Source: a phage. From it: DNA of 64,000 nucleotides. Of this stretch, positions 6,642 through 63,976 are shown one piece after another; position 1 is the stretch's first letter; every line of letters begins with the position of its first letter. A program made the position numbers and the translations under genes. Under the pieces are notes generated by a model, which ran no database searches, was not told the origin of the DNA, and worked only from the letters and a program-made list of their open reading frames with translations. The stretch is taken from assembly GCA_024613925.1 (NCBI GenBank), contig GCA_024613925.1_4713.1. One strand, given 5' to 3'.

Positions 6642-7226
6642 TTACACAGTTGTAGGAAATTCCGGCCAATCGATATTTGGTGCTGTTGATGTGTCAACGC
6701 GATGCAGAGCCACCCGATACTTTTTCCATGCCGTCAACATGGACACCTCTTCTTCCGTTGCGATCTCCAGATCCACAGCATCCTGAAGTGGCGTAATATG
6801 ATCATTCGCCGCCTTCATCAGACTGTTTTTTGTTTCTTCCGCCTCCCGGATCCGGAACAGTTTTTCTGCTTCCGTATCCTTCACCCAGGCTGTGCCGTCC
6901 CACTTCTGAAACTCCCCTTCCGGCGATAACCAGGTAACATTTTCCGGTAACGGACCGAGTTCAGAAATAAATAACGCGTCGCCGGAAGCCACGTCATAAA
7001 CCGTTTTACCCCGATGATCTTCAACGAGATGCCACGATTCATTTTCATTGTTAAAAACTGCCACAAAACCAGCAGGAATTTCCGGTGGGGCGATATCTGT
7101 AGAATTAGCTGGCAGACCTGTATGAGGCGGAATATATGCATCACCTTCACCAATAAATTCATTAGTTCCGGCCAGCAGATTATAAATTTTTATGGTCCGT
7201 GGTTGTTCACTCATTCTGAATGCCAT
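6642..7226 (-). CDS. tail fibre assembly protein (Tfa-type chaperone)
   Basis: C-terminal region [45 protein letters not shown] typical of lambda/P2-type Tfa; start ATG overlaps fibre stop (TAATG). Confidence 0.8.
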
Positions 7227-10200: not shown

Positions 10201-10438
10201 TAATACCCTCAACGATAATCCTGGTTGTGCTGTCACCATCCGCATGGATATTAGAAACTTCCCCACGATAAACTTCGTGAACAAGCGCTGTTTGGCTGGC
10301 GTTCGGGGTTGGGATCGAGCCGTTACCATCACCAACGGCAAAGTGTGTGATTTTTAGTTTCTCACCGTCGGGAAGTAACGCAGCGGTGATACGTTCTGCT
10401 CCTTTATCGGTAACTACCGTTATATATGCTGTACTCAT
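7226..10438 (-). CDS. long tail fibre protein with C-terminal His-x-His repeat tip
   Basis: 1070 aa; repeats [38 protein letters not shown]; Gly/Ser/Thr-rich; followed by Tfa gene. Confidence 0.8.
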
Positions 10439-15900: not shown

Positions 15901-16519
15901 CAACAACCGATGGGGTAATCTCTAATAACTGACACCATTCATAACGGTCCGGTACACTACTGGACGTTGTTGGTAAAGGTAACTTGTATACGCCGGTACG
16001 ATTCAGATCGAACGCTTTTCTAGCCGATCCTAAATCAACATAAATACTCGATGATGCGCTTGCACTATACGCTCCCAAAGCACCTAGCGTTGACCGATAC
16101 ATTGAGATGAACAACGTATCTTTCCAGTACGGGTTATCCTTGGTTGGTTCTAAAGCGATTTGTGCGGAGATGCTGTTCTGTGTCCCTAACTGGTATGTTG
16201 CATTTAAAGATTCTTCCGTGAAATAACTTTCTGCAATTGCCAGATGGAACTGCTCGTTCAATAATGCGAGTGCGGCGCGTCCAGTAACATCCTCATTACC
16301 GGTTTCTTTTTTCATGATCGCGCCGAACGGAAACAATGTCGCGAATGACCGTTTTGGTTTATTAACCGTAACCGTCCCTGTGTAATTTCCAACACCATCA
16401 AGTTTTTGACTATCGCCAACAGCAGTGACTGCGATACCATCAGCCGGGATATCTGTTTTATTTAGTATATTGAGTTGGTCAACCAGATCCTGCTTATCGT
16501 CAGGTAAGAATGTCGCCAT
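12923..16519 (-). CDS. large (1198 aa) virion-associated protein of unknown function, possibly enzymatic tailspike
   Basis: Long ORF with SD GGTGGAG upstream of ATG; preceded by adapter-only ORF 16533..17363. Confidence 0.5.
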   Translation of the reverse strand: MATFLPDDKQDLVDQLNILNKTDIPADGIAVTAVGDSQKLDGVGNYTGTVTVNKPKRSFATLFPFGAIMKKETGNEDVTGRAALALLNEQFHLAIAESYFTEESLNATYQLGTQNSISAQIALEPTKDNPYWKDTLFISMYRSTLGALGAYSASASSSIYVDLGSARKAFDLNRTGVYKLPLPTTSSSVPDRYEWCQLLEITPSVVGGQIDWSNYLMLEPLTPTFPVMEIDTTYYFLLWTFNRKDWYVKQITASERYNDVAQLIGKWMITASPVNFVGYGHARFLTRNTGTFTDPETDHYVLNESGVMVNNRHFIAATRQEAQPDGDATTEGQSLLILGAGIFSHTTDDTKLKAHYLTLAEASFDAYIKAFYAGLEPPDTPARWIANWIVNGKQPVLAHYPLAKNDYPTHGGFHDTAVTFTNGIGKITHGAPTFGEYMDLVVQVYEGKLGWQNLNADVFKTNDDGTIDWDTKGTVFPIEKVALRTKRYVSVGGDDLEACTDDEVGTIVLKDKSVSGSYLVAWAPRVPVEYGGYLIKTNECQHNRPIQVPVTRDYMGNASDAEQWFCEAAYTLYSLTQQERYQKAYKASLFTIEEYTRIDANDKFFRQVKGTDRYDTDGIAYTYTYPSKAPFTITRDTDGWIVIQASSAQIYLEQQAIPFRVNRDSILRVTCGGKDTAGIAIPVEISLSLSLDKTEAKAKTYKLVLPSSAEPKEWDFKIGSLIPADAVDEASTPTGDAVTGSVLISADKVGWKDDVAITTEFSEAVEDSWDGLFLKAQLTAAGGQFEFNPTAKQIVRQVSYFASIDYNVRVEDTNGWRWWYMLPATTARNTLTLSANGWTLSGYQPGHADTDPKPSAPVWGDGSTEILFLPDDGDIAEGVFKLYAINNPPSTYTTDDGYTMLFTLKATFEAEGTLRVGDCTIVNQRLDPLPYTPGIIPFSNNYVPNAPTFDSWRGQPYPGYQHPWVFLDMDVSAERRDLMIQNVVNFWYDSQQWYYQKFGVLGPGASAYVWDRWDAPSGSKVNDFTMYHFGDQTAWSGYQPRAFFSAVRLYAGLLDRGLAVPEKLTTYISHWIDFLFTYQQENAYQSPTDFPMDKPPAFIPNDFTGHMAGLWLAGASLAMLYGHPNDKGYSVAVNAYNEIVENYINRYTVDDVMNGGWSPAPDSANLGRDGMYFGFWSGEILRGLGYYIALLRDIKPTI

Positions 16520-16532
16520 TATTTACTCCACC

Positions 16533-17363
16533 TTAATCGTAACTAAAATAAAGTTTGCTGCTGACGCCGCTATCGGAATGAGGTTTTAACACCAGAACAG
16601 AGCTTCCGAACGACGGAAGTATTGGAACATCTAAATCGTTCGCGTCAGCAACTTTTCCATTATAAACGACACTGGCTGTTGTGATGAGTTCCCAAGCTGA
16701 GGTATAACTCATTGAAATCAGCGATGAGGCTAAACGGAATGCGTTGTATCCTTCTGGACTATCTCCAACCGACATCGAACGTATCGCATCTTGCGGCGGT
16801 AAATTTAGCTTGATACCGTAAGTGCTGAATGTGTGGAAATCCCCTTGTTTACTATCTTCTGGATAGTACGAGGTTAGTGGTTCTCGCACCGTAAACAGTT
16901 CGCTAATATCGGTACTTACCGCTTTTCGTGCGAGGAATTGAAACGTACCGTACCACGATGCCGATGCATCAGAACGAACGGGAACAGATATGGTTTTCTC
17001 GCCGCTTTCAAATTTAACCTGTGATGCTAACGCTGAAGAATCAAAGATCGTTAAATCGATCTTCAACCCATACTTCTTAAACAGCTGCGTTAAGCAATCT
17101 GCTATCGTCGTCTTATCAGCAACGACAATAAAAGGTTGGTGTTTGATAAAGAGCTTATTAATGTCTCGACGTTGAAGATAAACCTGTACGGGGTCTTCGA
17201 CGTAGTAAACCGATTGTGGTGCGGGGGCTATAGAAAGGCGTAACCGACCCGATGCACCATACCAGGCTGGCGTTAACGTAATGTCTGACAGGGATAACGG
17301 ATGCTGGAGATAGGTGTTTATTTTAGATAACACTTCCTCCTGCCATGATGCTTCAGGATACAT
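16533..17363 (-). CDS. divergent adapter module protein (paralog D)
   Basis: 276 aa; weaker similarity to adapter module (RRDINKLFIKHQP, FKKYGLKIDL). Confidence 0.5.
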   Translation of the reverse strand: MYPEASWQEEVLSKINTYLQHPLSLSDITLTPAWYGASGRLRLSIAPAPQSVYYVEDPVQVYLQRRDINKLFIKHQPFIVVADKTTIADCLTQLFKKYGLKIDLTIFDSSALASQVKFESGEKTISVPVRSDASASWYGTFQFLARKAVSTDISELFTVREPLTSYYPEDSKQGDFHTFSTYGIKLNLPPQDAIRSMSVGDSPEGYNAFRLASSLISMSYTSAWELITTASVVYNGKVADANDLDVPILPSFGSSVLVLKPHSDSGVSSKLYFSYD

Positions 17364-17421
17364 GCTGACCTCATAGATGATCGTTGATAGGAAAGAGACC
17401 TAATTCATACCATGGGAACCT

Positions 17422-17475
17422 TAAAAAAAAGAAAAATAGGAAAACGGTGTTCATCCTTTTAGGGATGAACACCGT
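17422..17475 (-). terminator. intrinsic terminator: 13-bp perfect stem followed by U-rich tract on minus strand
   Basis: acggtgttcatcc/ggatgaacaccgt stem 17444-17475; minus strand then reads TTTCCTATTTTTCTTTTTTTT. Confidence 0.7.
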
Positions 17476-17494
17476 GTACCGTTATATCGAACGA

Positions 17495-18070
17495 TTAATG
17501 AGGAATCAGATCGTTAAGCTTTTCTTCTTCAATGACAAAGAAGTTGTTCTGGTCGTCTAAATCTGTTAACAGGACTTGCCCAACAGTAAAGCAAGTTCCG
17601 CCTTTCTTAGGCACCCATACAGGCTCGTTCGTTACCTTATCGGGATACCATTTGAAACGATTGGTATCTAAGAAGAACGCTGCTTTGTTCGCTTTATCGG
17701 TTGAACGATAGCTAACTAGCGCAGGCCACTCAATCCAGGTGTTTGTGCACGGCACATGTAAAGGATACCATGCGCGCCAGCGTTTGCCTGGCCTGTTAGG
17801 ATCAACCCAATACTCGGCAGTCAATACAGCATCTTTATAATGTTTCTGCATTAACATTTCGAGCACAAGCTCATTGCCTTTTGATGCGTCTAAAGTCACT
17901 TCCGTCATATAAAGAGATTTAGGTAATTCAGACTGTTTTGCGGGTGTTACAACACCGGTAACCAACGGTCTGCTCGGTTTACGTTTCTGTTCTTTCCGAC
18001 GTGTGTAAAAGAATAGTCCGATAGATACAGCAACAAGTATAATAAACAACACTACCTTAATCCAACTCAT
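17495..18070 (-). CDS. membrane-anchored protein (N-terminal TM helix)
   Basis: N-terminus MSWIKVVLFIILVAVSIGLFFY then basic stretch. Confidence 0.5.
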   Translation of the reverse strand: MSWIKVVLFIILVAVSIGLFFYTRRKEQKRKPSRPLVTGVVTPAKQSELPKSLYMTEVTLDASKGNELVLEMLMQKHYKDAVLTAEYWVDPNRPGKRWRAWYPLHVPCTNTWIEWPALVSYRSTDKANKAAFFLDTNRFKWYPDKVTNEPVWVPKKGGTCFTVGQVLLTDLDDQNNFFVIEEEKLNDLIPH

Positions 18071-18855
18071 TCGTCAATATCTCCTTCCACAAACAGAGTC
18101 AATTTGATTTCAGGGTCATAGAACATGGTAATCACATCATCTTGCTCTACTGAACGCTGTGCTGTCCATATTAACTGTTCATCCCGAATATCAAATTTAT
18201 GTCGTTCGTCACTCACCACAGCTTCCGCATCAACGTAGTGGTAAACATCACCGAGAGGATTCTCAATCCAGCCGCGTACCATCAAACGTTCTTTTTGTTT
18301 ACGTGTAAAGAAGCGATAAGGATCTTCGCACGTGCGCCACACGTCCCCGTTCTCGTTAACCAACTCATCATAAACTTTAGAGAGTTCGTCGGGTACCGGA
18401 ATCAAAATGTTATCTTGATAGTTCGACCAGAAACAACGTACATCTTGGATCAACTCATCGCCTGGGAGTTTAGTCGCTATGTTACTATAATCGATTTCAA
18501 CAGTATCGATATCAGGACGGGTAAACGGAAGAGCGTCTAGGTTTCCCACCATGACCTCGATACTATCATGATGAACACGAATCCATCCATCGAACCATCT
18601 GTACCCATCAGCTTGATATAACGTTGTGTGATAAGTGACGACGTTAATATCCTCGAACGATTCTAATAAGGCTTTAGCGGCTAAAAGCGGCGAAAAGTTC
18701 TTTGATTGTCCTGGTTTACGTATTTCTTCTTTGATGAACAATTTACCAAGCGCCGGGTGTTCGATAACAAAACCACAGGAGAGCATGATGCTTCCTTGAT
18801 AACGTGCTTCTTGCATTTTCCATTCCTTAAACAAAGTGTGTCTTTTACGCGACAT
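18067..18855 (-). CDS. hypothetical protein
   Basis: 262-aa ORF, 4-nt overlap with downstream gene. Confidence 0.5.
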   Translation of the reverse strand: MSRKRHTLFKEWKMQEARYQGSIMLSCGFVIEHPALGKLFIKEEIRKPGQSKNFSPLLAAKALLESFEDINVVTYHTTLYQADGYRWFDGWIRVHHDSIEVMVGNLDALPFTRPDIDTVEIDYSNIATKLPGDELIQDVRCFWSNYQDNILIPVPDELSKVYDELVNENGDVWRTCEDPYRFFTRKQKERLMVRGWIENPLGDVYHYVDAEAVVSDERHKFDIRDEQLIWTAQRSVEQDDVITMFYDPEIKLTLFVEGDIDE

Positions 18856-18892
18856 GATTACTAGTACACAGGTTACTGAATTTCTGTAAAAG

Positions 18893-19423
18893 TTAATGTT
18901 TGTTCTTTACGAACTCTATCGCCTCCAGAATACCAGCGTTTAATCGTTGACCGCGTTCCTCCATTGTCCCGCCATCGCGATGTTTGAAATTAACCGAGTG
19001 GATATCCCAAGCCCAGTAATGTGTCTCCGGCGTGTCGTCTTCTTTGGTGGGATCGCTCAATCTGTTAACCCCAATTCGCCAAATATAATCAGCGGGTTGT
19101 CGTCGTAAGCATTCACCTATAGCGTCTATATAAGACAACCCTTCGGTCGTCACAGCGACGACAACGTGTGGGTGTTTTTTGACTTCTTTGGTTGTTTGTT
19201 TGCCGTCCAATGTCACGCTGATCTTTTGAATTTCGTGTCCTTCGCACGACCATATCGGTGCAATACCTGGCGCATCTAACAACGCCTGGCATGCGGGTAA
19301 TATACCAGGTTCAATGACTCCTTCCTTGATAGCCATCCGTGCGCGTTCTTTGAATATCGCTAATTGTTCTTCGGTGACAACAAAAGAAAACATAATTACT
19401 CCTTTCTGGTTCTTCCCCTCCAC
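18893..19423 (-). CDS. hypothetical protein
   Basis: 176-aa ORF. Confidence 0.5.
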   Translation of the reverse strand: MEGKNQKGVIMFSFVVTEEQLAIFKERARMAIKEGVIEPGILPACQALLDAPGIAPIWSCEGHEIQKISVTLDGKQTTKEVKKHPHVVVAVTTEGLSYIDAIGECLRRQPADYIWRIGVNRLSDPTKEDDTPETHYWAWDIHSVNFKHRDGGTMEERGQRLNAGILEAIEFVKNKH

Positions 19424-19465
19424 AGCTTCAGGAAGAGAAGAACCGTTTGTTACGTTGCTAAGTAA

Positions 19466-19723
19466 TTAAAAGGCGTTGATTGGATTGTTCAATGCTTTAT
19501 CGCGGATTTGAATTGCTGCTCGCATTGCTTTCTGATACGAATCGTAAGCATCAACAGAAACCGTCATATCAACCAATTTCTCTAATACGGATTCAGCCGC
19601 TTTTACGCGGATGCGGAACTTGGTGATGGCGTTATCTTTGTTACGATAAACCGTGATATGGTGCAGCGGTTGAACGTTAGTTTTATTTGTTTTAACGGAT
19701 TTAGTTGCTTTGATCGTTTTCAT
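19466..19723 (-). CDS. hypothetical small protein
   Basis: 85-aa ORF. Confidence 0.4.
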   Translation of the reverse strand: MKTIKATKSVKTNKTNVQPLHHITVYRNKDNAITKFRIRVKAAESVLEKLVDMTVSVDAYDSYQKAMRAAIQIRDKALNNPINAF

Positions 19724-19778
19724 GATGATTTCCTTCTTTATTAGGATAATTACGTTTTAGTCAGTTTAACAGCATAAA

Positions 19779-19803
19779 CCCTTCCTGCGTAAGGCAGGAA
19801 GGG
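19779..19803 (-). terminator. GC-rich hairpin (cccttcctgc...gcaggaaggg) followed on minus strand by TTTATGCTG
   Basis: 10-bp stem read from sequence. Confidence 0.55.
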
Positions 19804-19817
19804 CATACGGATTTGTT

Positions 19818-20315
19818 TTACGTGTGTCGTCGTTTACCAAAGAAAATGTGGCTGTCTACCACGGTGATATTGGTAGCATGTTTTCTGAAATGTTTAGGGC
19901 GAAGATGTTTCGTGTTAAAGAATACGGCTCCTCGTGTTGGGTCGGCTTTATGGTAAGCCGCAATGTCAGTATAACGTAATGTTGCGACCTCTCGTGCTAT
20001 TGCTCTTGCTCGCTCAAAAGCAGCATGATCGCGTATGATAATACGCCTTTGTTTTGTCCAGGGGAATTGACCTCTTTGCAGTACGACGTCTTTGACGTTC
20101 GTAGGGAATCGGTAGTCCATAGATCGATTATGTATTAAAAACGCCACGGAGTATTGCCCTTTTACAGATTCGCCTCTGGCTTCCATATACACGGCGCATG
20201 CGACGATCTCTTTCCGGCAATCGATTCTAGGTCCTGCGTTCACTGATGCTTGACTGAACGGTGTGATAAGCAACATAACAAGCCCTAAAATCAACGTGTG
20301 TAAAATACCTTGCAT
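19818..20315 (-). CDS. SleB-like cell wall hydrolase with N-terminal signal peptide (candidate lysis enzyme)
   Basis: Motif CAVYMEARGE typical of SleB/Hydrolase_2 family; signal peptide ending SQA; SD GAGGT. Confidence 0.6.
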   Translation of the reverse strand: MQGILHTLILGLVMLLITPFSQASVNAGPRIDCRKEIVACAVYMEARGESVKGQYSVAFLIHNRSMDYRFPTNVKDVVLQRGQFPWTKQRRIIIRDHAAFERARAIAREVATLRYTDIAAYHKADPTRGAVFFNTKHLRPKHFRKHATNITVVDSHIFFGKRRHT

Positions 20316-20856
20316 CTTAATAACCTCACGATAAGGTGCTGTCCACTGGCGTCTTGATAACGCATCCCGTCATCGGGTTGTTCTATTCAGCGGGCAGCAG
20401 GTTAGCGTCAGATGTTTGCCCGACATCCACGACAGAAATAAACGGTACTGAAAATACGGTCTCCTCTGGTTTGGCAATAAACATAACGTTGGATAACAGA
20501 ACCCATTTCCCGCATCCAACGCGGTAAAGGTGTACATCGTTTGAATTCATATAGTTTCTCAAAGATGTTAACCTCTACCGTCGAGCCATAGGTTGTATTT
20601 ATCCCGAACATACGGATCGCGATAAATACGTCGATAGACTTGATGTGGTATAAACTCGCAATGTACGAGTTCGTCGCTTAATTTATGACGTCGTTCCATA
20701 ACGTTGTGAATACGACGTATCTCCCGGATATTAAAGGTTGTTTTATTCAAGAGAATAGACATAATGGCGGATCGATGATCCAGATTAAAGATCGCCATCA
20801 CGCTTCGTATCTCGCGTAAAACAACTTCCCTATCGACAAGGATGCGATTAGTTAAC

Positions 20857-21249
20857 TTAAGATTCTCCGTGATACCCATAACCTTCATCCTCGACACGTC
20901 GACACCTCGGTAAAAATAAACACCAGCTTGTTGCACTGAGGATCGCCGTTGCGATGATACTTGCGATATCACCCAGTCGAGCATCGACCTGCCACATAAC
21001 AAGCATAAAAAGCCACATAACAAGCATAAAAAGAACGTACGCGAACCCATACACGATAAACCGTTTGATGTTGCGCGTCGACCCCGTACAAATATACAAA
21101 AGGGGAAGCTGCCCTATAACACAAACGATGGTTCGGATAACGTAATAAACGCGTTCCGTCGTTGTTTCAAAATCGATATTCGTTGCAGAAATCCCGATCA
21201 TTATAAAAGTGAAAAAGAAATAGATTTTTGCGTATGTCTTTAAACTCAT
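20857..21249 (-). CDS. multi-pass membrane protein containing a 21-bp in-frame tandem duplication
   Basis: Hydrophobic segments; duplication 20991-21032 encodes repeated MLVMW. Confidence 0.45.
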   Translation of the reverse strand: MSLKTYAKIYFFFTFIMIGISATNIDFETTTERVYYVIRTIVCVIGQLPLLYICTGSTRNIKRFIVYGFAYVLFMLVMWLFMLVMWQVDARLGDIASIIATAILSATSWCLFLPRCRRVEDEGYGYHGES

Positions 21250-21265
21250 GGCTTTTCCCGATCGT

Positions 21266-21499
21266 TTATTTGTGTTTTCCTACATTCCTCAACAAGGTAA
21301 CGATAACGAATACCGCTATCATCAAGAAGACGAACCATAACCCTACGTTAATTCGAGCAGCAGGTTCATCGACCATGAAGAACATCATCCCACAAAACCC
21401 AATGACCATCCATGCTAGAACCATCCCCGTTAATCCCCGTAGTAGCATATGTCCCATCATGAACTCCTTCTTACTTTTTCTGATAAAGCGATGATTCAA
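21266..21499 (-). CDS. small two-TM membrane protein (holin-like)
   Basis: 77 aa with two hydrophobic helices and basic C-terminus. Confidence 0.4.
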   Translation of the reverse strand: MNHRFIRKSKKEFMMGHMLLRGLTGMVLAWMVIGFCGMMFFMVDEPAARINVGLWFVFLMIAVFVIVTLLRNVGKHK

Positions 21500-21633
21500 A
21501 TTTTAGAAACATCCCTAATGCGAATGCGAGTAATATCGCACGTACCCACATACCTCCTTGACAACTGTTGTACAACATAAAGACCAGAGCGATGCCGCCC
21601 ATATGCAGGCGGCACTTATCGAACAGTGTTGGT

Positions 21634-21861
21634 TTATACATAAGAGATCAATCGTTGAATGATTTTTACTTTGCCTTTACCTGGACCTTTCTTGCGGCGA
21701 TTCAACAGACGGATACTGTTTCCAGTTACGGTGTCGCCATCATAATCAGCCTGGAACTGTGATAAAAAAGCAGGCTGTATCGGATCGACACCAGGATTGC
21801 TATAGAAAGGATTGAGACTTAAAAGAGGATTAGCTGGAATCATCGTATTGTCCTTACTCAA
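21634..21861 (-). CDS. small basic protein with RRKKGPGKGK motif
   Basis: 75-aa ORF; motif shared with ORF 38457..38648. Confidence 0.35.
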   Translation of the reverse strand: MSKDNTMIPANPLLSLNPFYSNPGVDPIQPAFLSQFQADYDGDTVTGNSIRLLNRRKKGPGKGKVKIIQRLISYV

Positions 21862-22212
21862 TTATTTACCCAGATAGAGGTATTCACCACCCTGAACAAC
21901 CCCGGTTGCTGGATCAACAAGTATACGAACCCGCGCGTAGGTCTTGAAAGAGGGGTTGAAAACTTCGAAGTCTGCCACTTTCAATTTCACGCTGGGGTTG
22001 GTAGGGTTCTTAACTCCGGGAAGTTCTTTCGGGGTACCAAAATCAACACCACATTCTTCAAGGTCTGCTGGTGTCATGCTCTCCATGGCCATGTAGATTG
22101 CTTTTGCTTTATCGTAAACTTCTGGGCTATCCAGCAACCCAGCCTGTGCTGAACCGACAACACTACCGAACAGAATAGCAATAGCAACAAACAATTTAGT
22201 TAACGTTTTCAT
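21862..22212 (-). CDS. secreted protein (signal peptide)
   Basis: N-terminus MKTLTKLFVAIAILFGSVVGSAQA. Confidence 0.5.
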   Translation of the reverse strand: MKTLTKLFVAIAILFGSVVGSAQAGLLDSPEVYDKAKAIYMAMESMTPADLEECGVDFGTPKELPGVKNPTNPSVKLKVADFEVFNPSFKTYARVRILVDPATGVVQGGEYLYLGK

Positions 22213-22248
22213 GATATTTTCCTCGAAAGTAAAATGTTACAATACCTA

Positions 22249-22671
22249 TTAACGTACGGCCGCTACGCTGTTAGCGCATGCCTGAATATCATCGGTATTT
22301 ACGATGATGGTTTCGTTAAACGCACGAATACGCGCACGACGTGCTTCTTTAAGGCTGGCGATTGCGCTAGCAGCTTGATCTGTATTCGCAAGGCTAATAA
22401 CCGGGATCAAACGCATGTCAGGACTGCAGATATTCAATGCTTGGTATACACGCCCATTGATTCCTACGGTATCAGACATCGGATAGTGCGCGCTGCATTG
22501 AAATTGACCCATGACAACAAGCGAACGATCGGAGATACCAATCTGATAACGCCCGTCTTCGCTGTAGGCGTAGCAGTTATTCCCACGAGCCATCCAGTTA
22601 GCCTGTGCTTGCGTGCTAACAAAAGCCAGAGTGGTAACGATAGCGAATACGATATTTTTGAGCAGTTTCAT
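22249..22671 (-). CDS. secreted protein (signal peptide)
   Basis: Start placed at MKLLKNIVFAIVTTLAFVSTQAQA because hairpin 22706-22727 lies inside the longer ORF extension; SD GAGGA upstream. Confidence 0.5.
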   Translation of the reverse strand: MKLLKNIVFAIVTTLAFVSTQAQANWMARGNNCYAYSEDGRYQIGISDRSLVVMGQFQCSAHYPMSDTVGINGRVYQALNICSPDMRLIPVISLANTDQAASAIASLKEARRARIRAFNETIIVNTDDIQACANSVAAVR

Positions 22672-22705
22672 GATAAAGATCCTCGTTGAAATAAAATCGG
22701 TATAA

Positions 22706-22727
22706 AGGCCCCCATTTAGGGGGACCT
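22706..22727 (-). terminator. GC-rich hairpin (ccccc/ggggg core)
   Basis: aggccccc atttag gggggacct. Confidence 0.45.
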
Positions 22728-22729
22728 GA

Positions 22730-23047
22730 TTAGTTTGCACGTAAGAAATGACCCAGAACCGTTACGATTGGAAACAGTCCTGTAACAGTACCATCGCCCG
22801 AAAACATCATCATTGTTCCGTTAACGGTGATGAAACGGATGTCGGTTGCGGACCCATCGATAGCGACAAAACGCATCGAGTTCGGTGGAAGGTCCTCAAC
22901 CACTTCCACGAGATACTCGCGATTATCAAAGGCTTCTTTAACACGACGCATGAAACGAATCAATGTTCCTTCAGCGTCGGCTTCCAAATGGCCTAAGATA
23001 TCGCGATTATTACGAACAGCGAATACAGCCATTTTAAACATACACAT
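22730..23047 (-). CDS. hypothetical protein
   Basis: 105-aa ORF downstream of 24-nt conserved motif. Confidence 0.45.
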   Translation of the reverse strand: MCMFKMAVFAVRNNRDILGHLEADAEGTLIRFMRRVKEAFDNREYLVEVVEDLPPNSMRFVAIDGSATDIRFITVNGTMMMFSGDGTVTGLFPIVTVLGHFLRAN

Positions 23048-23113
23048 CTTGACATCCTTTTATATTGGATTGATTGCTAATAATTCAAGGTGAAGCTGAT
23101 TACTGCATTGCTT

Positions 23114-23137
23114 CACCTAAGTAATATAGCCGTGAAA
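23114..23137 (-). promoter_or_regulatory. conserved 24-nt intergenic motif, copy 1 (minus-strand reading TTTCACGGCTATATTACTTAGGTG), adjacent to hairpin 23088-23118
   Basis: 23/24 identical to 50604-50627; both upstream of minus-strand genes. Confidence 0.35.
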
Positions 23138-23155
23138 ATTAATGTATTAACCCAT

Positions 23156-24112
23156 TCACGCTTTTGCTAAGTAGGGTTGGATCTCATTAATCCGTTTAAC
23201 CACAACCTCAGGGAAAAGTTTGAGTATTTCATCAGGTGGTATCGCACCTTCTGTCCAACGATAGCGTTCAACCATCTCGATGCGTGGACTCCCTCCGACG
23301 TCAGCGATACGAAAGATGCAGGCGATGCCTAAATCGAAACATACGCTGTATATATCTTCCGTGCCTCCTTTATCAGCAAGTATTTTCGCAAAATGCTCGT
23401 TATCGGGAAGAATGGCTAAATTACGGATACACCAAACATTATTCCCCATTTCTTCAAGTTTTGGGTAGGTTAAAGTGTGCCCGTATTGTGTCAACCATCG
23501 ATGATTTTCGAGGTAGAAGTCCTTATCCCCTGGCCGATAACCCAGTATCACTCCCGTGTAGAAGAGATTGGGCATATCGAGCAGTTCTTGAATCGTTGGA
23601 CCCGTATGCTCCCAAAGACAGATTTGTTTACGGTCTATATCGTAATCTGTGACGTTACTCACCTCCCAACTTATCGTAAGTTCGTCGACAACGTGCCAAC
23701 CTAAAGCATGTTCGCCACCAAGCAGATTAACAATGGCTGATATTTCATACTTGTCAAATACGCCTAAATTACGCGGTGGTTGCATCGTACGTAATGGCTC
23801 CCACAGCACACTGTAATCATAGAGCAAATGGCGACATAAACTTTTTGTTAGCGGTGTCTGTTCGGTGAACAGCGGAAGAATTACCGTATCTAACAGTGGA
23901 CGTAATGGATGGTTGTCAGGTGGTAGAGGAGAAACCAGACGACCTCCTTCTTTGGGGTAATCGAGACCAAACCCGTAACGCTCCGAAATGAGCGCAATCA
24001 ACACTTTTGCTACGCGGTTACGTAGCATGCGATGGATATCATCACTGTAACTGAATTTCGGTTTATTACCGCAAACGAAGGTGAAGTATCTGGGCGTTAG
24101 CACAGCCATCAT
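23156..24112 (-). CDS. hypothetical protein
   Basis: 318-aa ORF. Confidence 0.5.
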   Translation of the reverse strand: MMAVLTPRYFTFVCGNKPKFSYSDDIHRMLRNRVAKVLIALISERYGFGLDYPKEGGRLVSPLPPDNHPLRPLLDTVILPLFTEQTPLTKSLCRHLLYDYSVLWEPLRTMQPPRNLGVFDKYEISAIVNLLGGEHALGWHVVDELTISWEVSNVTDYDIDRKQICLWEHTGPTIQELLDMPNLFYTGVILGYRPGDKDFYLENHRWLTQYGHTLTYPKLEEMGNNVWCIRNLAILPDNEHFAKILADKGGTEDIYSVCFDLGIACIFRIADVGGSPRIEMVERYRWTEGAIPPDEILKLFPEVVVKRINEIQPYLAKA

Positions 24113-40688: not shown

Positions 40689-40897
40689 TTTAATCCTCTA
40701 AGTGTTTCGAGTAGTTCCTGAAATTTATAACGATATTTAGGATTGCTTAACGTGTAACAGCAACCATGTAACACGTTATACGCGTAATCAACTTGTAAAC
40801 CACGAACCTTCGGATCCAATGATAGATTCAACGGCGCATTATCAAAAATCCATGCTTCAATGTTCTTCTTGGATTCCTTCGTTAACATCGTTTTCAC
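40685..40897 (-). CDS. hypothetical small protein
   Basis: 70-aa ORF; 4-nt overlap with thyA start. Confidence 0.45.
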
Positions 40898-41019
40898 CTC
40901 GTCGTAAAAGTAAATAGAGTTTTGTCGAGACGCCCTAATTACTTACAACGTCGGTTCTCCTGGCTTCAGAGAATTCTTAAAATCCGTTAGTTTTGATGGA
41001 CGGGATATGGCAGCATAAA

Positions 41020-42362: not shown

Positions 42363-42371
42363 AATATGCTG

Positions 42372-49867: not shown

Positions 49868-50554
49868 TTAACACATGATTTCACCATGTTTCTTTTCAAC
49901 ATACGTATAAACGTCATCCAAATAAGCAATGAGTTTATCACGATCCGCACACAGCGATTTAATCACCGCAATCTCTTTCATATAAAGCTGCTGACCTAAC
50001 GCCGGATAGGTAATCCAAGCGTAGCCGTCAGGCGCAAATTTAGAAATAAGATAATCAGCGGTTTCCTGCAAGGCGAACTCTTTGCTCATCTGGCCGTAAC
50101 GGTGTTCGATTGCACGGATACCAAAACGTTCGCTATCAAGACGACCCATATCCGCCAGACGAAGCACCTGAGAAGCAACCGAGCTACGTGGACCAGAGTA
50201 CGAGGCGCGGTGTTCAGCAATAAGTACGCGTATCTCCTCGATGTCTTCCGGTGTGAAAATATGCTGCTCGTTACGAAGCAGGATAACCGATGCACGAATA
50301 CCCCCGATAAGGTGGTGGTATGTTCTGTTTTCGTGGCAAGCGATATCATGCATAAAAGCAGCGGTTAATAGACGACGACGTTCCGTAGGTCTGATGATCC
50401 CAACCACATCAGCAAGTTCATTTGCCAGTTCAACAACAGCAAGCACATGTTCTTCTTGATGGGCAAGATCGTTCTTCCGAATATTTTCAATTACTTCAGC
50501 GCGAGTTTCCTGAGATAAGAAATTTAAACAATCCAACGAATATAAAGATTTCAT
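49868..50554 (-). CDS. HD-domain phosphohydrolase
   Basis: EEH...AAFMHDIACH...D pattern. Confidence 0.5.
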   Translation of the reverse strand: MKSLYSLDCLNFLSQETRAEVIENIRKNDLAHQEEHVLAVVELANELADVVGIIRPTERRRLLTAAFMHDIACHENRTYHHLIGGIRASVILLRNEQHIFTPEDIEEIRVLIAEHRASYSGPRSSVASQVLRLADMGRLDSERFGIRAIEHRYGQMSKEFALQETADYLISKFAPDGYAWITYPALGQQLYMKEIAVIKSLCADRDKLIAYLDDVYTYVEKKHGEIMC

Positions 50555-50603
50555 CGCACGTACCTCTTTGAATCGGTAGATAGATTAATAGATATTGATT
50601 ACT

Positions 50604-50627
50604 CACGTAAGTAATATAGCCGTGAAA
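50604..50627 (-). promoter_or_regulatory. conserved 24-nt intergenic motif, copy 2 (minus-strand reading TTTCACGGCTATATTACTTACGTG), ~50 nt upstream of HD-domain gene start
   Basis: 23/24 identical to 23114-23137. Confidence 0.35.
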
Positions 50628-50706
50628 GGATTTGTGTTGGTCCGTTTCGATGCCTATCGTATTTTATGGATTGTCGAATGACGTCATTTTAAGGGACATC
50701 CCCGGC

Positions 50707-55779: not shown

Positions 55780-57354
55780 TTACAATTCAAAATCTTCATC
55801 GATAACGCGCTGGGTAAGCACTTTGTCGCTGAAGAACTCCACCTTGCGCTGATGGTATTTACGGTGCGCTTCAATAGAAGTACATACCAGATACCAGAAC
55901 GTTGGTGTCATTCCTTCAAACTTCCCTTTCAGCTGACGCAGTCGCCCCAACACCTGAATGTTACCGGTTCGTGACCCCATCGCTAATGTCATGAACGTCA
56001 TCACCAAGTCAGGAAGGTCGATACCTGTACCTGCCGATTTCACGGTTGTAACGCTGATATCGTTATCCAACAAGACCATGAAATCTTCTTCAGCAGTATA
56101 AGGACCAATCTCTAACTCAGGAATACGTTCACTGAGATAATGCGATAACGACTTACACATATCAACGGTTGCACAATACACCAGCATCTTCATACCTTCC
56201 TGATACTGGTTCATGAAACCTTTGATGATAACCGTATAGATAAAGTTGAAATAGGCGAGTTTGAGTTGCTTGTTCTTCATGATAGACTGTTCGAATATCG
56301 TGTGAGAATAAGAACCCCCAAACCCTTTGTATCTGACTTTATCTGTACTGCGTAGTCGATACGTCACGGCATTTACCGCAATGTATTTCTTGTATTCGCA
56401 TTTCGCATAACGCGCTTCTTTCGGATACATCAAATACAACATCCGCTCGATGAACGGATCGTCAGACACCGCTGTTGCCGACAGATAGATGATTTCCGGA
56501 ATATTTGCATAGCACTTCACTTTGAACAAGAAATGCAAGGCTTCATGGCATTCATCGTGGATCAACAACCCAATACCTGTTTTCTCCCAGAACTCGGCGG
56601 GATGGAAAACATAAGGTGCGACACAATTGTTCTTTTCATAATCGGTTATGTATCTCTGAAACATGTTCAGCGAGAATAACGCAATTTTGAAATCCAGCTC
56701 ACCTTGTTCCACCAACGTCTGGAATTCCAGCATGCTGTAACGAGGAATGTCTGGATGCGGTGGGTCAGATTGGGCTGTACCGCGTATCTCGATAACATCG
56801 CCTGGTTCCATACCGAAGAAACTTAGCAACGAGCTGCGCCATCCAGGCATGTATCTCGGTGACAGAATAATGCCCGTCCGTACACCACGTCGGAAGGTGA
56901 TCTCCTGCGACATGGCTGTTTTACCACTGCCCGTGCCTGCGGTGTTTAGGCTCATTCTGAAGGGGGTATCCTTACCCCCATCCATGTACTCCAACCATTC
57001 TTGCTGATCTTCGCGCCACGGGAACTTCCATTTCTTTACGAACTCCACTTCCTTACCTGGCACCGGATCGTGATAAACGATTTCCAACCACTCTTTTCGG
57101 ATTCCTCGAGAGAAGATAAAATCCAAAAACGATTTCAACTGTTCACGGAGTAAGTATACCTCGCTATAATCGCTTCTTGCCGCGGCATACGTGTTTATGG
57201 TATCGGTAACCATTCTCCGTGTACGAGGGTCACGTCGTTTCCTCAGATGCAAACAACGGTCTCGAAGGTAATGGCCGATAAGATGGGCAAATCGAAGTCC
57301 GTATCCGCTCAGCCTCATGCCATGCGAGAAGACGTCGATACGAGCTAACTTCAT
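55780..57354 (-). CDS. DEAD/DEAH-box-like SF2 helicase
   Basis: Walker A GTGSGKT, motif II LIHDECHE, motif III SAT, TAT... GRLRQ. Confidence 0.65.
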   Translation of the reverse strand: MKLARIDVFSHGMRLSGYGLRFAHLIGHYLRDRCLHLRKRRDPRTRRMVTDTINTYAAARSDYSEVYLLREQLKSFLDFIFSRGIRKEWLEIVYHDPVPGKEVEFVKKWKFPWREDQQEWLEYMDGGKDTPFRMSLNTAGTGSGKTAMSQEITFRRGVRTGIILSPRYMPGWRSSLLSFFGMEPGDVIEIRGTAQSDPPHPDIPRYSMLEFQTLVEQGELDFKIALFSLNMFQRYITDYEKNNCVAPYVFHPAEFWEKTGIGLLIHDECHEALHFLFKVKCYANIPEIIYLSATAVSDDPFIERMLYLMYPKEARYAKCEYKKYIAVNAVTYRLRSTDKVRYKGFGGSYSHTIFEQSIMKNKQLKLAYFNFIYTVIIKGFMNQYQEGMKMLVYCATVDMCKSLSHYLSERIPELEIGPYTAEEDFMVLLDNDISVTTVKSAGTGIDLPDLVMTFMTLAMGSRTGNIQVLGRLRQLKGKFEGMTPTFWYLVCTSIEAHRKYHQRKVEFFSDKVLTQRVIDEDFEL

Positions 57355-59357
57355 AACGTGATTACATCCTCCGGTTTAGGTTCTTTACGCGGTAACAGCA
57401 TGTAGTCGATCGGATGATCCGGCTTCATGGTTGGGATATAACTGTTCGGGTTTTGGAACGCATCCAGCTGCTCTTGGTGAGCGAACTTCATACTCAAGGA
57501 GCGCATGTTCATGTTCTTCTTGAAGGTACTGAAGTATCGTGTTGTTCCCTGTTTCGGCATGCGATAATCTTTCGTGTGTGGCGAACGAATCATGCTGGCG
57601 TAGAGAATAACATCGAGATGCGAAAGGTTCATTCGCAGACGCTGGGCACACAGACGATGCCAATAGTACAGCACGTTTGCAACTTCCTCCGGTGTTGCTT
57701 CGTCTTCCGAGAGGAATCCGGCACTGAAAGAACATTTCCCGAATTTGAACTCACGTTCGATTTCTTTTGCGTACTCCATCATGTTTTTGTGGATTAACGG
57801 CATCTGGAATAACGTACGTGAATTGTCCCAGTGTTTCAAGTCGAAAATCACAATCCCGTCAGACGTCACTTCCCAGCTATGGCGTTTGAGGTAACGGATA
57901 AACGCTTTACTCGGTACAACAGGACGACCACAGAAATCGAAATTGACTTTGAGCTTACGATAGCTTTCATCTTTCCTGTCGTAAATCTCCATATCGCAAA
58001 GCGTCATGTTAAACAGACGTTGCGGTATCAGCGAACTGATTTCTTCCGCTTCCGCTACGTCATACAACATGTTCGCAAGACCTAACTTCATCTTAATCAA
58101 CACGTGTTTACCTTTCAGCTCACGTGCGAGTTTGATGTCGTTCATGTTCTGGCTGTAGCGAAGGATATGTTGATATTCCGGTGGGATTGGTGCTGTGGAT
58201 ACCGTTGACGAACCATCGTGATGTTTGGTAGAAAGAATGTTCTGCGTTACCTGTTGCGAACAGGTACGTGCTGCACCATCACCGACATTATCAGTCAATG
58301 CGAAGTTATGACTTAATTCACCGTAACACGTCGTACATACCCCAGCAGGATCGGGATGATGACAATAGTTAACGGAGCGCATGCGTACCGTCGTACCAAT
58401 CAATTCTTTCATGTGTGGCTGTATCGCTACCAACGAACCGTCATCACGAATAATGAATCGACCGTGGAAGCCACGCAGGTCGGTCTCATCACGGATTGGC
58501 ATCGGGATGGTCTCTTTACTACCACAATCACCAGGATGGAGTCGCTGTACAACCGCCGTCGCTATCTGAAGTTCACGACCGAAATATTCAGACTTTTTAA
58601 TCTGCTCTTTGTTGAACAGCAACGATTTCGCCGCAGAACGACTTTCTTTCAAGCTGTCAGGAAGAGAGATCAAACCGGCTGCATACGACCGCATTACCGG
58701 ATCGCGGAATATCTCGGAGTTAATATCGGTCAAGAATCCACGCATCCCAATACACTGCAGCACCTGCCCAATCGAAACGTGTTCGGTTCTTACCGCACGT
58801 GCAATAGGGTTTGCATGTAGCGTTTTATCGGTGCTCAGTACCTTCGTCAGTTTCTTGTATGCGCTTTCAATGCCTTCGCGGGTGGGTTCCGCTTCGGCGA
58901 TGATTTTCTTAACTTCGGGATGTACGGTAATCTGATAAAAATCGTCCGCGCAAATCGTTGTTACGTATTCCTCCAACGCATACGTAAAGAAGTTATATAC
59001 ATTGTTAAACATATCGAACAATGCTTTCCAGAGAACCTCACGATTCTCTTGCGGATAAGCATACATGCATTGACGATACGCGGCGCTTTGCAACGCAACC
59101 GATGAACCCGCTGTGAACTTGCGTTTATCAACCAGGTTCTCTTTTGTCAGTGGGGTCTCAGGATACATGCGATGCACAGACCAGTGCATGTAACTAAAGA
59201 AAATGCGTCGCGCACGCAATTCATGAACGCCATCGTCCATCTCGATATACACACGGTCATTAGGCTGTGCCCACTCGAACACCTCATCAACCGGCCAATG
59301 CATAAGCTCGCGTGCCCTCACACGACGTTTCGTGGTGGTTGTCTGTGTTGTAATCAT
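57351..59357 (-). CDS. RNA polymerase beta-prime-like subunit, C-terminal portion (bridge helix and trigger-loop region)
   Basis: By-eye alignment to bacterial RpoC: GMRG (bridge helix) and RSVNYCHHPDPAGVCTTCYGEL...GDGAARTCSQQVTQNILSTKHHDG vs RSVVSCDTDFGVCAHCYG...IGEPGTQLTMRTFHIGG. Confidence 0.6.
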   Translation of the reverse strand: MITTQTTTTKRRVRARELMHWPVDEVFEWAQPNDRVYIEMDDGVHELRARRIFFSYMHWSVHRMYPETPLTKENLVDKRKFTAGSSVALQSAAYRQCMYAYPQENREVLWKALFDMFNNVYNFFTYALEEYVTTICADDFYQITVHPEVKKIIAEAEPTREGIESAYKKLTKVLSTDKTLHANPIARAVRTEHVSIGQVLQCIGMRGFLTDINSEIFRDPVMRSYAAGLISLPDSLKESRSAAKSLLFNKEQIKKSEYFGRELQIATAVVQRLHPGDCGSKETIPMPIRDETDLRGFHGRFIIRDDGSLVAIQPHMKELIGTTVRMRSVNYCHHPDPAGVCTTCYGELSHNFALTDNVGDGAARTCSQQVTQNILSTKHHDGSSTVSTAPIPPEYQHILRYSQNMNDIKLARELKGKHVLIKMKLGLANMLYDVAEAEEISSLIPQRLFNMTLCDMEIYDRKDESYRKLKVNFDFCGRPVVPSKAFIRYLKRHSWEVTSDGIVIFDLKHWDNSRTLFQMPLIHKNMMEYAKEIEREFKFGKCSFSAGFLSEDEATPEEVANVLYYWHRLCAQRLRMNLSHLDVILYASMIRSPHTKDYRMPKQGTTRYFSTFKKNMNMRSLSMKFAHQEQLDAFQNPNSYIPTMKPDHPIDYMLLPRKEPKPEDVITL

Positions 59358-59502
59358 TATTACTTTCCGATTTAAATGGTTTTATCATACGGTTTACCAA
59401 TTCCGTTGGAATTTACTATCATCATGATAGCATCGGGAATCCCTTCTCTTAGGTTATGTAGGTGTTAATATATCTCCACTACCGGAGTAAAAGTCGGCAA
59501 CA

Positions 59503-61422: not shown

Positions 61423-63591
61423 TTAGCTTTCGCAGTCATCTGCGTCGATGATTTGTCCGCCAGCAACGTTCAGTTGATGATACAGAATCCTCAACGCACG
61501 GTTGCCGCCAATTGGATACTTCTCGAAGTTGGTCGCAATAGGAATCGCTGACGGTTTATCGGTCGCATAGATGCTTTCAGTGATGCTATCCACCTGTTTT
61601 GGATTGTTCGCATAATCCATAAAGACGCTTGCGAACCATCCGCCAGCAAAGGCGGTAACTTCGCGATGCTCAGATTCACCACAGTAACGAGTTGGTTGCT
61701 CTTTACCCGGAGAACTGTATTTATCGCTATTACTGAGTTTCGACGGTAATCCGTGCGCTTGCAGTTTAGGAATACCCACCGCTGACCAATCGTTCGCCGT
61801 CTTCTCCAGCATCATGATGTACGTGTCACCGATCGCAATATCGTTCTTGGTTGTCCGCCACTGCCCGGAACGCCCACGATACCGTACAGGACCTTTCTTC
61901 AACGGGAACTCACGAATCAGATTCTCCATACGTTCTGAACCTGCTGCGATACTGTCCGTCGGGATATAAACTTCCGTACCGTGGCGTTGTACGTACCGTA
62001 AATGATCCCATTTATCCTCATCCGTGATACAGTATTTTTCAACAACCTGTTCCACGAATTCAGGACTGACGATATAGTAGTAGCGCATCAGTGTGTTCCA
62101 AGCGGTCTCCAGATCGCCTGCATCCATCACCGGTTTCAGTTCACGCATGATCTGATCACCAACGCCGTTGATGTACGGTGCGTTAACACGACTTAAACTC
62201 ATCCTTTTGATTACCGTACTATCGTCGAACATGAAGTCCGCAACATTACCCCATTGGTCAACCGGCATTTCATCGTCTTCCATGATGTCGGTTACAACGA
62301 ATTTATCACCCGCCATACCGGTGAATTTAAACCCGATACCTGGAACAACGTCATACGTGTACGTGATGGTCACACGCCAATCATCGAGATTCTCTTTGCG
62401 GTAATCGCGGGTCGGTAGCACATGACGTAGCTGTCCGTTGGGATTGCGGATATCAATACCATGTTCAGCATCAGCCAGGTTCAACCACCACATCACCGTT
62501 TGATGATGACGTATCGGCGTACCAACGCGTTCACGTTCGTACTTACGAACAGCATCCTGAATTCGGGTGTAAAGCAAACCGATCGCGTTCTCGTATTTCA
62601 GGAATTGACGATACGGAGGACGCATCTTCTCTTCCATCATAATCGCACGCTCGCGGGCTTGACGTCCAGAACGACGATGTCGATCGCTGACAACATCGAT
62701 ATCCGTTACACGCGCATTCGGTTCCGCGTAAGTGAGATCATCGTAAACATAATCCACACGCTGAAGGTTACACGTCATCATGTCAACAACGCTGAGGATA
62801 GGATCGATTTCGCGTGTTGCTGCAAGCAACCCATCTTTACGAATACGCTCGCCGTTCTCGGGTATTGCTTGGTATACTTCGTCATCACCGTAGAGATTGA
62901 TTGGGTATCGCGATTTACCTGACGTGATTGTTCGCTTCTCAATACCTGTGCTGGTGAAATGCTTCAATACACCACGACGGGCAACGCCACCATCTTCAAT
63001 ACATTGGTAGAAGCTACCGAAACACACCTTGCAATCGCGACCGTAACCCCACTCACGTGTTTCTTGATTGATCGCTGGGCTTTCCATCAAACGAGAATAT
63101 CGCGGTACGATCTGGCCTCGACGGAGGGAATGGAACAAGTTGGTTGGTCGAAAACGGAAACCGTACTGCTGATGCATGATGTGATGCTCAGGCACTTCAA
63201 GCAAGCGTAGCTCGTGACGGTTACCATCCTCTTGGTTTTCGTACAGCACGTAATGCATCGTGTTTGTTTTGATGCTGTTTGCTGTATGCCCCGGTTGGAA
63301 ACGTGGGATGATATCTATGATGCGAGATTCGACTGGAAACTCTACTGACCACGTGTTCTGTCCGTACTGGTATTCGATCCCCGTCGTCAGTCGGGACGGT
63401 TTCGCATCTTTGATAACCAACGCTTGGCTAAGATGTCCACCAAACATCGCAGCGCGCTGTGCTGAGTTATAATGCAATAGCCCGTTAAGTCCAGTCCCTA
63501 CGCCAGTATACTCCTGTTTAATGGGAATGATTTTACCTTCAGCGATTGCCTGCTTCACAGATTCATAAAGAGGTTTTTCTTTATAATGCAT
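61423..63591 (-). CDS. RNA polymerase beta-like subunit (C-terminal portion homologue)
   Basis: Weak by-eye similarity to RpoB C-terminal regions (GMAGDKFVVTDIMEDDEMPVDQWGNVADFMFD; YIMMLEKTANDWSA...GESEHREVTAFAGGWFASVFMDY); start set at MHYKEK (SD AGGAAG) rather than track start 63756. Confidence 0.45.
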   Translation of the reverse strand: MHYKEKPLYESVKQAIAEGKIIPIKQEYTGVGTGLNGLLHYNSAQRAAMFGGHLSQALVIKDAKPSRLTTGIEYQYGQNTWSVEFPVESRIIDIIPRFQPGHTANSIKTNTMHYVLYENQEDGNRHELRLLEVPEHHIMHQQYGFRFRPTNLFHSLRRGQIVPRYSRLMESPAINQETREWGYGRDCKVCFGSFYQCIEDGGVARRGVLKHFTSTGIEKRTITSGKSRYPINLYGDDEVYQAIPENGERIRKDGLLAATREIDPILSVVDMMTCNLQRVDYVYDDLTYAEPNARVTDIDVVSDRHRRSGRQARERAIMMEEKMRPPYRQFLKYENAIGLLYTRIQDAVRKYERERVGTPIRHHQTVMWWLNLADAEHGIDIRNPNGQLRHVLPTRDYRKENLDDWRVTITYTYDVVPGIGFKFTGMAGDKFVVTDIMEDDEMPVDQWGNVADFMFDDSTVIKRMSLSRVNAPYINGVGDQIMRELKPVMDAGDLETAWNTLMRYYYIVSPEFVEQVVEKYCITDEDKWDHLRYVQRHGTEVYIPTDSIAAGSERMENLIREFPLKKGPVRYRGRSGQWRTTKNDIAIGDTYIMMLEKTANDWSAVGIPKLQAHGLPSKLSNSDKYSSPGKEQPTRYCGESEHREVTAFAGGWFASVFMDYANNPKQVDSITESIYATDKPSAIPIATNFEKYPIGGNRALRILYHQLNVAGGQIIDADDCES

Positions 63592-63622
63592 AGGACTTCC
63601 TATTATCGAATTGAGGTACGTC

Positions 63623-63976
63623 ATGTCTAACACGCCCCTGAACGACTTTCTTAAGACAAACCCCGATGACCTCATCCACGATCTTGATTTCAGGAACGTT
63701 GTTGAGATGCATCTGGAATATTTCAAAAATGCCGGACTGGTCTCTACGATAGACATACCACCCGAACGTGCCTACGAATTCGATGGTAACTTTTATGGAT
63801 TGTGCCGTGTTCTGCTCGGTGAGGGCAGTGAACCAATGCACTGGATAACCATGAGACTCAATGGCTATCGTGACCCCACGGAATACACCGCCGATGTTCT
63901 AACCATGAAGATTGTCGATACAAGCGCAATCAACACATTAAAACAACAGTACCGCACAATCCACTACAGCGCTTAA
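63623..63976 (+). CDS. hypothetical protein (plus strand)
   Basis: ATG at 63623 with SD GAGGT; ORF runs to 63976. Confidence 0.35.
   Translation: MSNTPLNDFLKTNPDDLIHDLDFRNVVEMHLEYFKNAGLVSTIDIPPERAYEFDGNFYGLCRVLLGEGSEPMHWITMRLNGYRDPTEYTADVLTMKIVDTSAINTLKQQYRTIHYSA

Follow-up and report, generated by a model that had tools for sequence, protein, structure and literature searches.

In every jumbo phage that encodes an RNA polymerase, a motif can be found before presumed early operons which is centred near position -10 and which has been confirmed as an early promoter wherever transcripts were profiled (PMC7598289). The early core of phiKZ reads TATATTAC (Table 2 of PMC7058600), and the same source gives TTAWTAVAA_HYWTTTRARR_BTATATTACDWHDGTG as the consensus of phage 201phi2-1, as well as predicted sequences for OBP (BSHAWWWWWTTTYARRYAKATATTATYWWADTG) and for the Klebsiella phage N1M2 (TBYAWWWWWTTTCARRYAKATATTATYWAAGTGWA). 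For 201phi2-1, an AT-rich motif was located by long-read mapping about 10 bp before the start, the conserved positions falling at -10, -20 and -30, and starts mapped by long reads in relatives are accurate to no better than ±2 nt (PMC11512511). The early promoters of AR9, obtained by dRNA-seq, follow the pattern AAATATATATTAT-(6N)-G, in which, as the text implies, the G is the start (PMC5312081). Early transcription of AR9 is insensitive to chloramphenicol and hence independent of new protein synthesis, and it is thus attributed to the virion polymerase (PMC5312081). Further sources on early promoters lend support (PMC8244752, PMC11512511, PMC10914365).

Here, we describe two copies of a 24-nt motif in a stretch of phage DNA of 64,000 nucleotides (the window). 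Judging from the sequence, we assign a probability of roughly 0.87 to the reading that a Goslar-like, nucleus-forming jumbo phage uses both copies, together with a weaker site at 59453-59460, as early promoters. Hereby, the motif would very probably be an early promoter that is read by the virion-carried RNA polymerase.

A repeated intergenic motif in a Goslar-like genome

When two 5-kb samples of the window were compared with GenBank phages, Escherichia phage vB_EcoM_Goslar (MK327938, 237 kb) matched them at 95.4% and 96.5% identity, and no other phage reached this level. Goslar infects E. coli, belongs to the phiKZ-like jumbo phages that form a nucleus and has its own multisubunit RNA polymerases. 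Two RNA polymerase subunit genes are present in the window, both on the minus strand, which shows that transcription machinery is encoded by the phage itself. They were identified via PHROGs, Pfam being nearly silent on them: a beta/beta'-like subunit gene at 57351..59357 (phrog_3015, E = 5.8e-170), whose product has homologues in 305 jumbo-phage records, and a second, beta-like subunit gene at 61423..63756 (phrog_3295, E = 2e-180; weak Pfam match to Rpb2_6). Synteny with an SF2 helicase gene, as in phage RAY, suggests that the subunit encoded at 57351-59357 may belong to the non-virion enzyme. While the subunit genes were found in the window itself, packaging of the polymerase is taken from the Goslar literature, in which all five virion-polymerase subunits were detected in Goslar virions by mass spectrometry (bioRxiv 10.64898/2026.04.21.720040). 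The gene numbers in this 2026 preprint differ from those of the GenBank record, e.g. for chimallin.

Several local differences between the window and Goslar were observed. The coordinate offset between the two is 90,669 at copy 1 of the motif and 92,182 at copy 2, from which it follows that the window is about 1.5 kb net short of Goslar sequence between ~23200 and 50600. At ~6665-7915, within the minus-strand ORFs 6642-7226 and 7226-10438, the resemblance to Goslar is lost: the distal end of the tail fibre and the gene for tail-fibre assembly instead share 87-91% identity with the side-tail-fibre/tfa modules found in lambdoid phages of E. coli, which points to a receptor-binding module swapped relative to Goslar. 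This swap also explains why Rfam gave a single hit in the window, IS009 (6685-6883, 163 bits), which lies inside the tfa gene and is unrelated to the motif. At 20991-21032, a small minus-strand gene contains an exact, in-frame tandem duplication of a 21-nt unit (GCCACATAACAAGCATAAAAA), which is present once in Goslar.

The motif is located at 23114-23137 (copy 1; CACCTAAGTAATATAGCCGTGAAA, plus-strand letters) and at 50604-50627 (copy 2; CACGTAAGTAATATAGCCGTGAAA, plus-strand letters). Both copies were found as a preliminary description of this DNA had listed them, with 23 of 24 positions identical, and a T at 23113 and 50603 lengthens the match to 24 of 25 (96%; repeat finder, 23113-23137 and 50603-50627). 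When up to three mismatches are allowed, exactly two matches occur in the window, compared to 0.00 expected from 100 dinucleotide-preserving shuffles. Among the 20 largest of 32 direct-repeat families, the motif pair is the sole non-tandem repeat above 90% identity. Read on the minus strand, the motif has the form TTTCACGGC-TATATTAC-TTA(G/C)GTGA, with TATATTAC appearing in reverse complement at 23128..23121 (copy 1) and 50618..50611 (copy 2). The preliminary description had likened this reading to the early core of phiKZ-like phages, and this comparison was accurate, TATATTAC being the phiKZ early-promoter core tabulated in PMC7058600.

The ORF positions confirm that both copies are intergenic and upstream of minus-strand genes. 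Copy 1 occupies the spacer that separates the stop codon of ORF 23156-24112(-) from ORF 22730-23047(-), whose ATG is at 23047, and copy 2 that between the ATG at 50554 of ORF 49868-50554(-) and a divergent helicase gene. A larger dispersed repeat, which the preliminary description had named as an outcome that would speak against a promoter, was looked for. Hereby, the similarity between the two copies stops within ~25-45 nt and the flanks are unrelated, so that the motif is not part of such a repeat. In the divergent spacer of copy 2, a GC-rich hairpin with a T-run behind it (CCTCCTCCCCAggaaaggtgTGGGGAGGAGTTTTTAT) is found at 50694-50745 on the plus strand, shortly before the helicase gene, which is on the same strand. 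This hairpin is similar to a conserved terminator motif of phiKZ, BCCYCCCC...GGGRRGG..TTAT (PMC10914365), and corresponds to an annotated terminator in Goslar. Since no plus-strand gene lies upstream of it, this hairpin may stop antisense transcripts or may be a leader structure or attenuator of the helicase gene.

Related sites in Goslar and in distant jumbo phages

In the whole Goslar genome, TATATTAC occurs ten times on the minus strand and never on the plus strand, and eight of these ten occurrences have much longer flanks in common. The preliminary description had proposed a genome-wide search for further copies, and such a search was productive: an iterated position weight matrix, built from the motif and run on the Goslar genome and on the window, converged on 15 Goslar hits, of which 12 are strong (42-51 bits) and two weaker (29-32 bits). 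The remaining, odd hit (28 bits) lies on the plus strand and is unlike the other 14. All 14 strong and weaker sites are minus-strand sites, each followed at a distance of 25-205 nt by a co-oriented start codon; simulated genomes yielded 0-2 hits at ≥14 bits. With the relaxed core TA[CT]AT[AT]A[CT]N5TG, the ratio of minus-strand to plus-strand matches is 13:0 in Goslar and 3:0 in the window, where the third match (19304) is intragenic, comes without the flanks and is probably due to chance. The matrix scores of the window sites are 46 bits for copy 1, 42 bits for copy 2 and 31.7 bits for a third site. Many intergenic copies are thus co-oriented with downstream operons (14 in Goslar, three in the window), these counts partly mirroring the design of the search, since both the matrix and the pattern used for IMG/VR (see below) were derived from the motif itself.

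The third, weaker member of the family (59445..59480, minus strand; core TACATAAC at 59460..59453, predicted start G 59446) precedes the ATG of the polymerase subunit gene 57351-59357 by 89 nt. Its Goslar orthologue at 151634 scores 32.3 bits, and the two motifs differ at a single base, immediately before the predicted start, with an overall identity of only 88% in this region. Another Goslar site, at 172978, is found 66 nt upstream of the chimallin gene Goslar_00189, the product of which is identical to the chimallin of PDB 7SQT. Chimallin has been described as an early protein whose gene the injected polymerase expresses (bioRxiv 10.64898/2026.04.21.720040). An early gene in Goslar and, at the weaker window site, a polymerase subunit gene are thus found downstream of members of this family.

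One Goslar site, outside the window, has its core (49725-49732) inside the annotated CDS Goslar_00047 (MK327938 49584-49772). Downstream of this core, a 25-codon ORF preceded by a GAGGA ribosome-binding site ends, by eye, at the same stop as Goslar_00047. Because this short ORF starts downstream of the site, the annotated start of Goslar_00047 has probably been placed too far upstream.

To follow the motif into more distant phages, orthologues of the HD-hydrolase gene downstream of copy 2 (30-34% protein identity) were taken from a tblastn search against GenBank phages, and five distant jumbo phages were examined. In three of the five, the motif is present upstream of the orthologue, 47-64 nt before the start codon: in Erwinia phage RisingSun (TTTCAAATC-TACATTAC-TAATGTGA, 64 nt), Aeromonas phage ACP1 (TTTTTCAAACA-TATATTAT-TATTGTGT, 50 nt) and Proteus phage 10 (TATATTAT-TAGTGTGT, 47 nt). 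It is absent at the HD-hydrolase gene of Vibrio phage pTD1, where this gene is operon-internal, and no match was found at the HD-hydrolase gene of Klebsiella phage Miami.

In IMG/VR, 106 stretches fit the degenerate pattern TTTCANNNNTATATTACNTNNGTG, in which 18 bases are specified. Most of them are on contigs of >100 kb and many on contigs of >200 kb, and their unconstrained flanks show an A/T-rich upstream block and often a T-run from a preceding terminator. No contig of the size of phiKZ (280 kb) is among these 106 stretches. Across three Goslar-like genomes, the promoter at copy 1 is invariant but for one T>C change which the consensus permits, and the 50 nt upstream of it are heavily substituted. 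The promoter at copy 2 is likewise invariant in the three genomes, and the leader right after GTGAGTAA carries substitutions and an 8-nt indel. The suggestion of the preliminary description that the motif is a candidate phage-specific promoter has thus gained support from the consensus match, from the strand-specific intergenic family and from conservation at an orthologous gene.

Promoter anatomy and alternative explanations

With the conserved G taken as +1, the Goslar-type consensus reads A(-34), A(-29), W-rich, TTsAsG, n, y, TAyATTAC (-14 to -7), yTwnrT, G(+1), A and amounts to ~50 bits in total. The functional element would thus span ~36-48 bp and be longer than the 24-mer, with an A-containing, A/T-rich upstream element near -34 to -23, TTsAsG near -22 to -17 and the core TAYATTAC near -14 to -7, followed by yTwnrT and by an invariant G-A. 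At copy 1 (23113..23148, minus strand) the A-containing element at -34/-29 is followed by TTTCACGGC (~-23 to -15), the core TATATTAC (~-14 to -7) and TTAGGT, which leads to a predicted start at G 23114; at copy 2 (50603..50638, minus strand) the core at 50618..50611 leads to a predicted start at G 50604. Both copies hence carry the core TATATTAC, of the conserved AT-rich kind (8-10 nt, TATATTAC or TAYATTAY, centred near -10) that marks early promoters of phiKZ-like phages, and the consensus contains, in addition, the elements at -20 (T-rich or TTTCA) and at -30 (A/T-rich, TTAWTA-like). A G seven bases past the core is present in all 14 Goslar sites and in all three window sites.

We infer the start position, the reading polymerase and the early timing from these features. 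By analogy with AR9 and 201phi2-1, minus-strand starts are predicted at 23114, 50604 and 59446 (Goslar 113783, 142786 and 151620), with an uncertainty of ~3 nt, which would give leaders of 67 nt (copy 1), 50 nt (copy 2) and 89 nt (third site). In the literature searched, no transcript 5' ends, timing or inhibitor data were found for Goslar or for the phage of the window. The word "promoter" is absent from the Goslar genome paper, the other Goslar papers searched contain no promoter description, and the genome paper and record annotate terminators, not promoters.

From each site, transcription would proceed leftward into blocks of minus-strand genes. After copy 1, these would encode small proteins of unknown function, the first being a 105-aa protein without a family match (22730..23047, minus strand); after copy 2, an HD-domain phosphohydrolase (49868..50554, minus strand; PF01966, E = 5.5e-8) would be followed by other genes of nucleotide metabolism. 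The first strong terminator-like hairpins on the minus strand downstream are located at 17475-17444 (copy 1) and 41677-41654 (copy 2). If these were the first functional terminators, the transcription units might extend over ~5.7 kb and ~9 kb, lengths which are weakly constrained because weaker or factor-dependent terminators would escape detection. No terminator was found upstream of copy 1. Up to the hairpin at 5.7 kb, the unit of copy 1 would take in a gene for a putative cell-wall hydrolase, a function not obviously early, and this counts against an early promoter at this site. Within the leader of copy 1, the sequence CAATCCAATATAAAAGGATGTC with its ribosome-binding site (23051-23072, minus strand) recurs almost exactly before another early-promoter-driven Goslar gene, gp75 (the Goslar positions of the shared sequence being 86626 and 113720); the N-termini of the protein downstream of copy 1 and of gp75 are unrelated.

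The same sequence could in principle be read by the host enzyme, i.e. as a sigma-70 promoter for the first phage genes with TATATT as -10 and the TTAATA-like sequence upstream as -35 hexamer. In line with this, TATATT matches TATAAT at five of six positions, copy 1 reads TTAATA-16-TATATT (nine of 12 overall), and the conserved G is spaced from the -10-like hexamer in a way that fits sigma-70 geometry. However, a scan of both spacers places the match of copy 1 at chance level (one found, 0.9 expected) and yields none for copy 2. In a close relative, the TTAATA of copy 1 is replaced by TCAACG while the rest of the motif is fixed, and the strongest conservation lies outside the hexamers, namely in TTTCAC in the spacer, in the AC after the hexamer and in T-G-A around the start. 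Moreover, the motif is common to phages of Pseudomonas, Erwinia, Aeromonas, Proteus and Bacillus, and infection of the phiKZ type has been described as independent of the host polymerase (PMC7598289). Compared to dinucleotide-preserving shuffles, sigma-70-like sites are also rarer in both regions scanned (15000-23200: 12 vs 17.0 ± 4.2; 40000-50800: 10 vs 21.3 ± 4.6), a deficit that is consistent with selection against initiation by the host polymerase in a host-polymerase-independent programme. Taken together, a host promoter appears very unlikely. That the motif is instead an operator to which a dimeric protein of the phage or of the host binds, with TTCAC-N14-GTGAA around the AT-rich core and without being a promoter itself, is suggested by the four most similar Goslar sites, including the counterparts of both window copies, in which TTCAC and GTGAA are exact reverse complements. 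Other members of the family keep the half sequences but not the palindrome (TTGAGG...CTGA, AACAGG...ATGA), so that there is no selection for symmetry. As the strand bias of 14:0 and the fixed orientation and distance to genes are unexpected of a symmetric site, and as both halves coincide with the published asymmetric promoter consensus (PMC7058600), we regard an operator as scarcely probable.

Little also speaks for a role apart from transcription initiation, be it as an RNA-level leader element or small RNA, or as the remnant of a dispersed mobile repeat. Copy 1 does overlap an 8-bp inverted repeat, and the recurrence of its leader part 23051-23072 before another Goslar gene would be in keeping with such a role, but a scan of the whole window gave no Rfam match at or near either copy, and copy 2 has no structure comparable to that of copy 1. 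The conserved core is situated upstream of the start position seen in related phages, which is at odds with an element acting in the RNA. The motif is not a mobile element, as similarity is lost within ~25-45 nt and the flanks are unrelated, and the orthologous positions of the copies are stable in three genomes; accounts of this kind are thus most improbable. For its virion polymerase, phage N4 uses promoters that form a DNA hairpin directly before the start, with a stem of 5-7 bp and a loop of 3 nt. In the present family, the only inverted repeat that spans the core has a 14-nt spacer and is lost in other members, and stable hairpins are located downstream of the predicted start, not upstream, for which reason an N4-type hairpin promoter was rejected. 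The motif is likewise unlike the middle and late classes of phiKZ, which carry TACT at -22 and TATG at the start, respectively (PMC7598289, PMC8244752).

Apart from the early promoter itself, we considered the inverted repeat at the predicted 5' end of transcript 1 (GGTGAAGC-13 nt-GCTTCACC; 23089..23117, minus strand), which could form a 5'-terminal stem-loop. Compared to UViG_3300011560, both stems are invariant and four substitutions fall into the loop; copy 2 has no such stem-loop at its predicted 5' end. When the first 45 nt from the predicted start were folded, eight of the 14 Goslar leaders, which are unrelated in sequence, reached z ≤ -2.0, with the stem usually beginning at +1/+2. Among 88 unique IMG/VR sites, a stem begins within nt 1-3 in 68%, compared to 44% of shuffles and 32% of a control 60 nt downstream. 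The mean z of these sites is -1.27 (Wilcoxon test against the downstream control, p = 4e-4), the sites not being phylogenetically independent. We saw no mention of 5' hairpins in the phiKZ dRNA-seq paper. That a stem-loop at +1, following GTGA, is a selected part of the early expression signal in Goslar-like and many other phiKZ-type phages is a tentative proposal which we consider rather unlikely. If it held, the hairpin could shield the 5' end from host RNases, could tag transcripts of the early vesicle for export or ribosome loading or, as DNA, could aid promoter escape by the virion polymerase.

Comparison with described early promoters

The promoter class to which we assign the motif is already well known from phiKZ-like phages, the Goslar-type sites being further members, and the understanding of the class thus remains unchanged. 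The sites would, however, provide a map of early-gene promoters with predicted starts for the one nucleus-forming jumbo phage that has been well studied in E. coli (three sites in the window, ~14 in Goslar), and they could be used for engineering early-expressed cassettes and for correcting gene starts. Jumbo-phage polymerases are without sigma homologues, and a promoter-specificity subunit has been described for non-virion enzymes only (reviews, including PMC7598289). For the question of how the virion polymerase recognizes its promoters, the closely similar promoters of an E. coli system would be handy templates in in vitro and structural work.

With phiKZ, the window motif shares the identical 8-nt core TATATTAC, its presence in multiple copies, its position before early operons and a virion-packaged multisubunit polymerase. 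The 'extended -10 box plus T-rich element upstream of -19' described for phiKZ (PMC8244752) corresponds to the TTTCAC upstream of the core in the window. The two differ in their hosts (Pseudomonas vs E. coli) and in their flanks, and 28-32 sites were mapped in phiKZ by primer extension, RNA-seq and dRNA-seq, whereas ~14 are predicted here from sequence. Compared to the 28-41 early promoters in phiKZ and AR9, the ~14 Goslar sites indicate either a smaller family or divergent members that were missed. AR9, a PBS1-like phage of Bacillus, has the same type of core (TATATTAY), and 6 nt again separate this core from a conserved G. In contrast to the Goslar-type phages, it has uracil-containing DNA and no phage nucleus, and the upstream half of its promoters is purely A/T, without TTTCAC.

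The promoters of OBP and N1M2 are, as here, bioinformatic predictions, and their core ends in T rather than C. The succession of TTTCA, 4-5 nt, TATATTAY, 4 nt and GTG(A) is the same, including the trailing GTGA. The consensus of 201phi2-1 has RARR in place of the CACGG of the window, and the Goslar-type sites make use, in addition, of the core variant TACATTAC. Otherwise, the 201phi2-1 consensus fits the window motif TTAATACATTAATTTTCACGGCTATATTACTTAGGTG nearly position by position, with the TTAWTA upstream element, the TTT block, the core and a GTG four bases past the core in common, and copy 1 (TTAATACATTAATTTTCACGGCTATATTACTTAGGTGA) fits the 201phi2-1 string at almost every position.
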